From NCBI GenBank assembly GCA_016193315.1, contig JACPSJ010000005.1, positions 68-64,067 on the forward strand: a stretch of 64,000 nucleotides of DNA, given 5' to 3'. Below the pieces are notes generated by a model, which worked only from the letters and a program-made list of their open reading frames with translations, did no database searches and was not told the origin of the DNA. The number at the start of each line of letters is the position of its first letter. Position 1 is the first letter of the stretch. This document shows positions 5,523 to 6,371 of this stretch, piece by piece. Source of the stretch: Candidatus Kerfeldbacteria bacterium (GTDB lineage: Bacteria; Patescibacteriota; Patescibacteriia; SBBC01; CAIJZX01). Both the position numbers and the translations under genes were made by a program.

Positions 5523-6371
5523 GTGGCGAGAAAGGCCACCAATTTTATTATGACGTATATTCAATCACCGCTTGATCGGACCGAAACCGAGCTTCGGATC
5601 CGCAATTACAGCCCTCGAACTCGGCAGAGCTATGTGCACTGTCTGCGCGCATTCTTTTCGTTCGTCGGAGCGGACGTTGAGCGCTCGAACGAGGAACGCG
5701 TTCGGCAGTTCCTGCTTTCTTTGGAACAGCGCGGCGCTTCACCTCAGACGCGGAATATTCATTTGAGTGCCATCAAGTTTTACTATCGGTGTGTTGTCCG
5801 TTCCGGTGCGCTGATCGCTGTCCCGGCCGCTAAGAAATCGGCCGCCTTGCCAGCGGTTCTTTCCCGCGATGAGGTCCGCCGGATGCTGGACGTGACCGTC
5901 AACGAAAAACATCGCCTGCTGCTAGCGCTGGCATACGCCGCGGGACTTCGGGTGAGTGAGGTGGTGGCCTTGCGCGTCGGAGATATCGATCTGCCGGAAC
6001 TCACCGTGCACATCAAACGGGCAAAAGGACAGAAAGACCGGATCAGCATCATGCCGGAGACCTTGCGCGAAGAACTCTCGCGTCTCATGGCGGGAAAGGG
6101 GGGCGATGCGCCGGTGTTTGCTAGCGCGCGGGGCGGAGTGCTCACGACGCGTACCGCACAGAAAATCTTTGAGCACGCGCTTGCTAAAACCGGCATCAGA
6201 AAACCGGCCACCTTCCACAGCCTGCGCCACAGCTTTGCCACCCACCTGCTGGAAAACGGAACGGACGTGCGCTACGTGCAGGAACTGCTCGGGCACCAAA
6301 ACATCAGAACAACCCAGAGATACACCCGGGTCACAAATCCGATGCTCAAACACATCAAGAGCCCGCTGTAA
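5523..6371 (+). CDS. IntI-like tyrosine recombinase lacking the IntI-specific additional domain (282 aa)
   Basis: N-term [25 protein letters not shown] and [21 protein letters not shown], C-term [45 protein letters not shown] (R-H-R-Y catalytic residues) closely resemble IntI1 blocks; ~40 aa shorter than IntI between patch-II lysine and box HxLRH. Confidence 0.8.
   Translation: [282 protein letters not shown]

Follow-up and report, generated by a model that had tools for sequence, protein, structure and literature searches.

Can gene cassettes be accumulated by a tyrosine recombinase that lacks the domain by which integron integrases (IntI) are recognised? The question is raised by a stretch of 64,000 nt from Candidatus Kerfeldbacteria, a lineage of the Patescibacteria or Candidate Phyla Radiation (CPR), comprising positions 68 to 64,067 of contig JACPSJ010000005.1 and termed as a whole 'the window' below. 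It contains a gene for a recombinase of the size of Xer proteins, beside an array of sites similar to the attC sites of integron cassettes. The additional domain of IntI is held to convert a Xer-like enzyme acting on double strands into a recombinase of single-strand hairpins, and a "lack of intermediates" between the two has been noted (PMC7790495). A first-pass annotation of the sequence had proposed that this protein is related to IntI, lacks the signature insertion and, lying next to a 'bona fide-looking' attC array, would be a minimal or ancestral integron integrase. The analysis reported here indicates that the locus is probably a sedentary chromosomal integron of Candidatus Kerfeldbacteria, the integrase of which is a Xer-sized tyrosine recombinase that either never had the additional domain or lost it long ago.

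A recombinase without the integron integrase insertion

The gene was characterised with Pfam, NCBIfam, HMMER comparison with 2a3v, AlphaFold, Foldseek and MAFFT:

5550..6371, plus strand: gene for an insert-less IntI/Xer-like tyrosine recombinase

An uninterrupted open reading frame (ORF) runs over 5523..6371 (+) and, read from its GTG, gives the 282-aa product of the first-pass annotation, in which every peptide block quoted there was found. Its extent probably requires correction, however, as the ATG at 5550, giving a product of 273 amino acids (aa), is more likely to be the true start: NCBI calls an identical protein from this position (P0001, a tyrosine recombinase of a Candidatus Kerfeldbacteria metagenome-assembled genome), the starts of homologues align with it, and an 8 bp GC-rich hairpin (GGTGGCGAGAAAGGCCACC) at 5520-5542 covers the GTG at 5523. 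This hairpin, lying upstream of ATG 5550, may be a regulatory element of the integrase gene. Pfam matches the protein to Phage_integrase (PF00589, 3.8e-41) and to an N-terminal SAM-like domain, and to no other domain; in particular, no arm-binding domain was found by this search. The catalytic residues R134, K159, H223, R226, H249 and Y258 (273-aa numbering) are invariant across 45 family members, the AlphaFold2 model has a mean pLDDT of 85.4, and a C-terminal SPL(D) motif ends the window protein, IntI1 and the fully printed short relatives. The recombinase is an intact enzyme rather than a decayed intI, and no second tyrosine recombinase was found within the 64-kb window.

When compared by HMMER with VchIntIA (2a3v) and with the NCBIfam integron-integrase models TIGR02249 and PRK15417, the protein aligns in two stretches with the insert skipped, whereas it aligns in one piece with archaeal XerA (4a8e). 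In the MAFFT alignment, KDR to H(T/S)LRH spans ~100 residues in IntI1 and ~58 in the window protein, close to the 95 and 54 originally counted; canonical IntI (IntI1 and three relatives) carry ~42-45 additional residues, opposite a gap of ~42 in the window protein. The IntI1 reference sequence was validated by a score of 799.5 bits against a cut-off of 435 and by its 100% identity to P0123. The same insert is missing from 15 CPR relatives, 14 other short recombinases associated with arrays, XerA and XerC/D. The chain of the AlphaFold2 model passes from a beta-hairpin (152-167) through a helix (170-180) and a short loop (181-199) into a further helix (200-214), and this loop is too short to leave space for the I2 helix. 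Both alignment and predicted structure confirm the suggestion that no trace of the ~45-residue additional domain (I2 helix) is present. No frameshift conceals it, since the ORF is unbroken and its length is that of the family throughout: the best 120 database matches (61-100% identical to the window protein) measure 245-318 aa, nearly all of them 270-295, and are hence too short to accommodate an insert of ~45 residues. A recent in-frame deletion in, or pseudogene of, a canonical intI was rejected on the basis of these lengths and of the invariant catalytic residues of the 45 aligned members.

In total, more than 7,000 database proteins match the recombinase at E<1e-20. The named members among the best 120 are almost all Patescibacteria (Portnoy-, Gracili- and Kerfeldbacteria), with one labelled Pseudomonadales, and they are annotated as XerD or as 'site-specific tyrosine recombinase/integron integrase'. 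The window protein belongs to a monophyletic Patescibacteria family of ~270 aa, all insert-less; it is thus no singular oddity, but one member of a large and conserved CPR family. Three loci (L004, L016 and L019, in the numbering used here) carry integrases of this family, 49-62% identical, in bins labelled Pseudomonadales or Gammaproteobacteria, which are probably mis-binned short contigs. A phage-borne origin was rejected, as the best relative in IMG/VR is 40% identical, and the family is therefore regarded as chromosomal.

The best NCBIfam match of the protein is XerA_Arch (209.6 bits, cut-off 220), and it falls far below the cut-offs of the XerC (188.4 against 335) and XerD (179.8 against 330) models. 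On the integron model TIGR02249 (integrase_gron) it scores 199.9 bits, compared with 508.6 for IntI1, 118.7 for E. coli XerD and 121.6 for XerC, and so lies ~80 bits nearer to IntI than do XerC/D despite the penalty for the deletion. Foldseek ranks VchIntIA (2a3v) first (E 8e-16), followed by XerA (3e-14, 1e-11), XerH (1e-9) and XerD (6.5e-9). In a neighbour-joining tree (272 columns, 100 bootstraps, rooted on XerC/D), IntI (99%) fall inside an assemblage with the CPR family (85%), other short recombinases and three proteins of DPANN archaea, while XerA and XerC/D fall outside it. Profile scores and fold comparison place the window protein nearer to IntI and XerA than to XerC/D; as had been proposed, it seems to be related to IntI rather than to sit firmly within XerC/D, and this affinity appears to be real, although the deep support in the tree is weak.

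The attI-like core and the cassette array

Upstream of the gene lies a single copy in the window of a putative attachment site, recognised by its conservation:

5438..5462, minus strand: attI-like, dif-like core, consisting of the integrase-proximal arm GGTTCGCATAA (5462-5452), the centre TAACGAG (5451-5445) and ATATATG (5444-5438), which belongs to cassette 1

The crossover is predicted between 5445 and 5444; the core is 105 nt from the recombinase gene, with the crossover 105-110 nt from the start codon. It has the 11-7-11 layout of a Xer site, and its fixed arm differs at one position from the XerC arm (GGTGCGCATAA) of E. coli dif. In ~25 CPR loci with integrases 51-100% identical to the window protein, the core recurs as (TT)CGCATAA-YAACGAG, with its orientation unchanged and at 40-110 nt ahead of the start codon. 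The consensus is TTCGCATAA-N7-|TTRRRY, and the bases beyond GAG| differ between loci: in L002 the core is followed by G|TTATCGG and the attC of the first cassette opens with the complement CCGATAAC, while in L086 it is followed by G|ATATATG and the attC of the first cassette opens with ATATATC.

The strongest single result comes from a pair of loci, L086 and L098, from two samples of one study. These are 99.9% identical over 932 nt, comprising 820 nt of the integrase gene and 112 nt upstream, and the identity stops exactly at ...CGCATAATAACGAG (AACGAG|), beyond which the unrelated sequences ATATATGATATATTCC... and TTAGACGCCATTAG... follow. Site-specific exchange appears to have occurred at the predicted phosphodiester beside the gene, and on a very short time-scale. 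That the crossover took place in the other attC box is excluded, as no attC remnant follows the attI core. The ends of assembled contigs show the same point: of those carrying the family and ending within 600 nt of the gene, 26 do so upstream and 7 downstream (p 0.001), and within 200 nt 17 and 2, several ending 3-4 nt beyond the crossover. This is the behaviour of an assembler at a population-level branch point.

The side on which the variable DNA starts also bears on the idea that the recombinase is the integrase of a genomic island in the adjacent tRNA-Ser gene (6642-6731, -). The 3' end of this tRNA faces the integrase from a distance of 270 nt, and the same tRNA-Ser(cga) lies beside the integrase in L008 (1421..1511). 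Nevertheless, a tRNA is next to the gene in just five of 32 CPR loci, where its identity differs (Ser, Leu, Met), the window contains no tRNA-derived direct repeat, the protein has no arm-binding domain, and the variable DNA starts from the dif-like core, on the opposite flank of the gene. With the adjacency not conserved and the repeat absent, this explanation was rejected as scarcely credible. The position of the tRNA-Ser(cga) gene (window 6642..6731, -) directly downstream of the integrase is probably a matter of synteny in a compact genome, rather than of an attachment site.

Beyond the core, 5.4 kb upstream of the recombinase gene is made up, on the minus strand, of units of the form RYYYAAC-A-[11-13-nt stem]...loop...[stem]-AAAC-G|TTRRRY, which delimit at least seven cassettes within the window, most of their ORFs being directed away from the recombinase gene:

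4905..5444, minus strand: cassette 1, GNAT acetyltransferase ORF 5427..4996 (Pfam Acetyltransf_1, 1.5e-15) and attC1 4973..4899 (R'' ATATATC, R' GTTAGGC)
3952..4904, minus strand: cassette 2, 68-aa ORF 4873..4667 and a long-loop attC (R''/L'' from 4656, L'/R' to 3946), found by site search
3278..3951, minus strand: cassette 3, 163-aa ORF 3878..3387 and attC3 3335..3272 (covariance model, 38 bits)
2557..3277, minus strand: cassette 4, 164-aa ORF 3203..2709 and attC4 2642..2551 (model 54.4 bits, folding z -7.0)
1364..2556, minus strand: cassette 5, ORFs 2343..1978 and 1951..1679 and attC5 1509..1358 (model match), flanked by ~65-nt inverted extensions
491..1363, minus strand: cassette 6, lipoprotein-like ORF 710..1252 (+) and attC6 572..485 (model 52.7 bits, z -6.5)
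1..490, minus strand: start of cassette 7, R''/L'' from 461 (GTCTAACAGCGGATATGAG) with ORF 43..324 (+) within the loop, cut by the window edge, found by site search

The R' box of one site and the R'' box of the next are reverse complements, six times in succession: GTTAGGC/GCCTAAC, GTTGTAC/GTACAAC, GTTGTGC/GCACAAC, GTTAGCT/AGCTAAC, GTTATCG/CGATAAC and GTTAGAC/GTCTAAC. Such chaining is the signature of successive insertion of circular cassettes at G|TT. A generic attC detector missed sites with a degenerate R'' or mismatches, and a covariance model was therefore added; this finds five sites in window 1-4977 and no attC match in the remaining 58 kb of the window. Among these, attC1 (40.5 bits, E 7e-8; hairpin z -3.8) lay outside the training set of the model. 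The neighbouring array noted in the first-pass annotation is real, as judged from the chained boxes, the covarying stems described below, the model matches and the hairpin z-scores.

Cassette 1 is the source of a variant R box, as it opens with G|ATATATG (5444..5438) and its attC1 with ATATATC (4973..4967), rather than with the usual G|TTRRRY and RYYYAAC. The same pair occurs in L086, so the TT/AA beside the crossover is not obligatory in the CPR system. The GNAT of cassette 1 provides the only Pfam match among the cassette ORFs of the window, which are mostly ORFans; the cassettes of relatives include HicAB, HEPN, NUDIX and restriction-modification genes. The DNA upstream of the recombinase has a lower GC content and a minus-strand coding bias, cassettes 1-3 having 38-43% GC against ~58% in the flanking genome. 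A search for a Pc promoter in the intergenic region gave one sigma-70-like match on the plus strand that was no better than those in shuffled sequences, the scan models not being of CPR promoters; in the Rfam search of the window, tRNA alone was matched and no RNA family covered the repeats.

A recurrent cassette-start element, TTAGCTGAMATATTCCTTTTCTTTTC-hairpin-AAAAATCTTTCAAATTTC, was observed at window 2556..2490 (-) and 1600..1510 (-), and also in L002, L084, L086 and L091. Cassette 5 has an inverted copy of it ahead of the next R'', extending the complementarity of R' and R'' to ~65 nt. It may be a promoter or terminator, or an element resembling Miniature Inverted-repeat Transposable Elements. 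On the other side of the integrase, a 355-aa ORF at window 12255..13322 (-) has a reverse-transcriptase domain (RVT_1, 2.9e-13; YLDD) and is followed by largely non-coding DNA to ~14500; it may belong to a retron or a group II intron, or be some other reverse transcriptase of the defence type.

Recurrence of the module and the predicted folding of its attC sites

Over 546 kb of CPR loci, the covariance model has 42 matches (E<0.1), of which 36 lie upstream of the integrase and 41 on the minus strand, as seen from that gene; five further loci, including one of a second Kerfeldbacteria genome in which a 495-kb contig ends within the array, contribute six more, all upstream on the minus strand, giving 48 matches in 618 kb (47 minus strand, 42 upstream). 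Many of these lay outside the training set. Where at least 1 kb of upstream sequence is available (~26 CPR loci), 17 have model matches and three more have sites found by the generic detector only. The recurrence of gene, core and oriented array as a module in more than 20 independent CPR loci is confirmed by these sequence searches. This co-occurrence, together with the parting of near-identical loci at the crossover, upholds the 'minimal' half of the description 'minimal or ancestral integron integrase'; 'ancestral' is not established, because the deep phylogeny is weakly supported in the neighbour-joining tree. In two related contigs, minus-strand attC matches (46-47 bits) were also seen 4.5-8.5 kb downstream of the integrase (L095 5606-9576, L096 6427-8888), possibly belonging to a second module; L096 has an upstream site as well.

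Arrays of this sort would by default be interpreted as clusters of attC sites lacking integrases (CALIN) (PMC4889954), built or serviced by a canonical IntI encoded elsewhere, with the short recombinase an unrelated neighbour. The window protein does score below the cut-offs of the IntI models, and 64 kb of the genome is in view. Against a chance association, distance and orientation remain constant over more than 20 independent assemblies, with integrases just 47-84% identical, and the array always begins at a core co-evolving with the gene, with the crossover 105-110 nt from the start codon. Furthermore, the window holds no second tyrosine recombinase, Patescibacteria are not among the integron-bearing phyla in the integron review, and full-text literature searches gave no report of integrons in them. 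A distant IntI is, on this evidence, very improbable.

A more serious alternative is that the enzyme is a housekeeping Xer of the CPR acting on a chromosomal dif core, and that the cassettes are parasites of the type of integrative mobile elements exploiting Xer (IMEX), such as CTX-phi in Vibrio, their traffic being a side-effect of dimer resolution with no dedicated integron involved. As matched by published description, that is by architecture and the taxonomy of homologues, the window family is the 'Cand' Xer-related subgroup of Smyshlyaev et al. 2021, which is simple and Xer-like, restricted to candidate phyla and presumed to replace Xer there (PMC8138268); moreover, a Xer hijacked by single-stranded IMEX has been proposed by Escudero et al. 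as the ancestor of IntI (PMC7790495). The family has thousands of members, 61-84% identical across many CPR classes, and some CPR loci have the core without cassettes. The core closely resembles the XerC arm of proteobacterial dif (GGTGCGCATAA), and a dif site adjacent to its recombinase gene is known from XerS/difSL. By contrast, GC skew shows no consistent switch of sign at the site in 13 loci with both flanks (+/-10 kb), the sign being the same on both sides in L009 and L097, and the genes on either side in the window point away from the site, which is not the pattern of a terminus. A side-effect of dimer resolution also fits poorly with a full integron organisation, in which R boxes are chained, ORFs mostly point away from the integrase and attC sites lie 3' of ORFs. 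We consider this alternative unlikely, though the foremost of the rivals. It overlaps the integron reading more than it excludes it, since the same enzyme would still be the cassette recombinase; the protein may also serve as the chromosome-dimer resolvase of its lineage, which is compatible with its being the integrase of an integron.

Comparable arrangements are found outside the CPR. Among relatives at 38-44% identity, in Saccharibacillus and other Bacillota, Spirochaetota, Bacteroidia and Thermodesulfobacterium, the CPR-trained model has ten matches, every one of which is on the plus strand and follows the recombinase gene at a distance of 0.8-6 kb. The generic detector finds series of ORFs and attC sites with chained R boxes in L025, L037, L046, L055, L051, L029, L044 and L038. 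The recombinases associated with these non-CPR arrays are 264-312 aa long, insert-less and score 201-227 bits on the integron model, and the arrays have the 'inverted integrase' layout, co-directional with the cassettes, and the same spacer asymmetry (1 nt versus 4-5 nt) as the CPR sites. Co-oriented ORF-attC arrays following insert-less recombinases were noted in 15 loci altogether (L025, L026, L029, L030, L032, L037, L038, L044, L046, L049, L050, L051, L055, L102 and L104), from Bacillota, Bacteroidota, Spirochaetota, Thermodesulfobacteriota and one Nomurabacteria genome. In L037 there are, in addition, three direct repeats (TTACGCAACTCATAT-like), and a junction resembling attI is located ~240 nt past the recombinase stop codon.

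The structure of the attC sites was studied in an alignment of 21 sites from eight loci. Compensatory changes are present in 10 of the 11 pairs of the L stem, and 92.5% of the cells pair, compared with 16-46% in slid controls, the observed values being reached in none of 500 shuffles. Three of four sites fold far better than shuffled sequences (z -3.8 to -7.0), and in the sites tested the plus strand always folds 0.8-3.1 kcal/mol more stably than the minus strand; in canonical attC sites, the recombinogenic bottom strand likewise has the more stable fold (PMC5027507). On the cassette-sense strand, the spacers are 1 nt on the 5' side and 4 nt on the 3' side in all 21 aligned sites. According to Nivina et al., IntI reads, through I2, the extrahelical bases of canonical sites, which are located on the arm facing the AAC triplet (PMC5027507). 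Here, the unpaired bases, including an occasional single bulge, are on the other arm rather than opposite the cleaved 5'-AAC-3'. The sites, called 'bona fide-looking' in the first-pass annotation, do form a real array but, because of this placement, are not fully canonical: their asymmetry is the inverse of the canonical one, as would suit recognition without I2.

About one site in six has halves 370-670 nt apart that enclose an ORF in either orientation. In the window these are at 4656..3946 (-), where a 195-aa membrane-protein ORF (4624..4037) sits within the loop of the cassette 2 attC, and at 461..<1 (-), a homologue of which is complete in L002. Others are at ~6270..5610 and 7990..7395 (-) in L002, where HicAB is enclosed, and in L086, L088, L090 (three sites) and L112. 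A recurrent stem subtype, CGGGCTAGCC/GGCTAGCCCG, is shared by cassette 2 of the window, L086 and L090, and in L088 a cassette consists nearly wholly of a long-loop site. We know of no equivalent of such ORF-in-loop sites in canonical integrons; their layout resembles that of pdif modules.

It could accordingly be supposed that the same enzyme performs double-strand Xer recombination between dif-like half-sites, as has been proposed for the pdif modules of Acinetobacter, each attC being two inverted double-stranded sites. Each half (R box, ~7-10 nt, L box) is indeed laid out like a complete Xer core site, the long-loop sites present genes flanked by inverted half-sites exactly as pdif modules do, and the enzyme lacks the domain credited with single-strand recombination (PMC7790495). 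Yet the halves covary within a site and differ between sites, which is explained by folding and not by independent double-stranded sites; their unequal centres (1 versus 4 spacer nt) are incompatible with double-strand exchange between halves; and the stability bias is strand-specific, as in canonical attC. Nor is I2 chemically necessary for exchange between a single and a double strand, given that XerCD, which lacks it, integrates the folded single strand of CTX-phi (PMC3442271); such a scenario is also set out in PMC7790495. Purely double-strand exchange is, on balance, improbable.

Under the integron reading, recombinase monomers would bind both arms of the double-stranded dif-like attI core just upstream of their own gene, this core being composed of the 11-nt arm GGTTCGCATAA, the 7-nt centre and a second arm contributed by the first cassette, and would likewise bind the R and L boxes of the folded plus strand of attC. 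The folded attC would mimic attI, with a short centre between its R-box arm and an L-box arm (ATCGCATA) like the attI arm TTCGCATAA; similarity to the attI arm is likewise seen in ACATCGCATA, the distal L' box in the attC consensus. Monomers bound at the R box would exchange one pair of strands at 5'-AA|C-3' on the window plus strand, equivalent to G|TT in the cassette sense; position and strand of exchange in canonical integrons are those of the junctions seen here (PMC5027507). The strand would be marked by the 1-nt versus 4-nt internal loop, instead of by extrahelical bases read by I2, and replication would then resolve the half-exchanged junction, in the manner of canonical integrons and of CTX-phi integration. 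We infer, then, the window protein as catalyst, a folded single strand as substrate, the strand used and replicative resolution; an enzyme without I2 reading a differently placed polarity signal would make a coherent system.

A number of points weigh against this reading. The window protein scores below the cut-offs of both integron models (265 bits for TIGR02249; 143.1 against 435 bits for NF011946, on which IntI1 scores 799.5), and the node uniting IntI with the short recombinases in the neighbour-joining tree has 25% support. The family is strongly conserved and near-ubiquitous in the CPR, as expected of a housekeeping Xer (PMC8138268), and ~5 of the ~26 CPR loci with long upstream flanks have the core and no detectable cassette, resembling In0. 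The sites entering the covariation count were chosen beforehand for having a stem, and ORF-bearing loops of 370-670 nt are awkward for a folded single strand. Recombination of attI and attC by the window protein is presumed from comparison, and the additional domain is required for cassette recombination by IntI1 and VchIntIA (Messier & Roy 2001 and MacDonald 2006, as cited in PMC7790495). Finally, the 64 kb covered is part of a genome that could encode a canonical IntI elsewhere.

Implications and comparison with known systems

Insert-less recombinases near attC sites have been reported by Cury et al. 2016, as 21 scattered cases with fewer than three sites each that 'are not IntI', and it is because such proteins are judged not to be IntI that IntegronFinder calls arrays of this kind CALIN (PMC4889954). 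Full-text literature searches, which did not extend to subscription-only papers, revealed no description of integrons or Xer-associated attC arrays in the CPR, and integrons are reported to be rare in Bacteroidetes and Firmicutes. We tentatively raise the wider possibility, somewhat less probable than not, that a large and ancient class of integrons, distributed over Patescibacteria, Bacteroidota, Bacillota, Spirochaetota, Thermodesulfobacteriota and possibly DPANN archaea, has insert-less recombinases of Xer size as its functional integrases. If this were so, recombination of folded single-stranded attC would proceed without I2, canonical IntI would be a derived offshoot of the insert-less group, and many CALINs, along with the apparent freedom of some phyla from integrons, would be artefacts of a definition based on the insertion.

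The literature and the standard detection software define integron integrases by the additional domain, a definition that the CPR system challenges. The family may connect Xer recombinases and integron integrases in nature. As a natural and widespread family that maintains cassette arrays without the domain, it would allow hypotheses on how integrons arose to be tested by experiment on extant proteins. It would also illustrate that attC polarity can be read differently, from spacers of inverted asymmetry; extend integrons to the CPR, and probably to phyla in which they are reported to be rare or absent, with many CALINs reclassified; and reveal a platform for gene acquisition in ultra-small, host-dependent bacteria, the accessory genome of which is poorly understood.

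Of the systems with which the locus can be compared, the pdif modules of Acinetobacter share small gene modules in series between inverted Xer-type sites, with the same layout as the ORF-in-loop cassettes, but are ordinary 28-bp double-stranded plasmid sites without hairpin covariation, a dedicated adjacent recombinase or an attI. IMEX such as CTX-phi have in common with the mechanism proposed here a recombinase without I2, the exchange of one pair of strands between a double-stranded dif-like site and a folded single-stranded hairpin that comprises two such sites in inverted orientation, and resolution of the junction by replication (PMC3442271; PMC7790495). They differ in that the CPR inserts are promoter-poor single-gene cassettes in an ordered array of at least seven, not phage genomes, and that the CPR site lies beside the gene of its one recombinase, rather than being served by a XerC/XerD pair.

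Xer/dif systems (XerS/difSL, XerH/difH and archaeal XerA) resemble the CPR system in the size and domain architecture of the recombinase, which has no accessory domains and finds its best NCBIfam match in XerA_Arch. They also share an 11-7-11 core, with an arm nearly identical to the XerC arm of dif, and a single recombinase gene beside the site. Unlike them, the window protein falls under the XerA, XerC and XerD equivalog cut-offs, has the IntI-like SPL(D) motif and scores 80 bits above XerC/D on the integron model, while the CPR site is not reliably at a skew switch and has one arm replaced by variable cassettes.

The likeness to canonical integrons, such as those of class 1 and the V. cholerae superintegron, is closest. 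In both, the integrase diverges from the array with attI by its 5' end, the ORFs mostly have the integrase behind them, and every cassette is closed by an imperfectly palindromic attC with RYYYAAC...GTTRRRY boxes, invariant AAC/GTT, crossover at G|TT and R' complementary to the next R''. In both, too, the bottom strand folds better and the cassettes are mostly ORFans, toxin-antitoxin and defence genes, and VchIntIA is the best Foldseek match of the window protein. The differences are that the window integrase lacks the I2 domain that defines IntI, and falls under both IntI cut-offs; that the CPR attC sites have only occasional single extrahelical bases, and some of their loops hold whole ORFs; that attI is a compact dif-like core; and that the host phylum, Patescibacteria, lies outside those recorded as integron-bearing in the review. 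In its architecture the locus is wholly that of an integron, but the enzyme that would run it fails the test by which the IntI family is defined.

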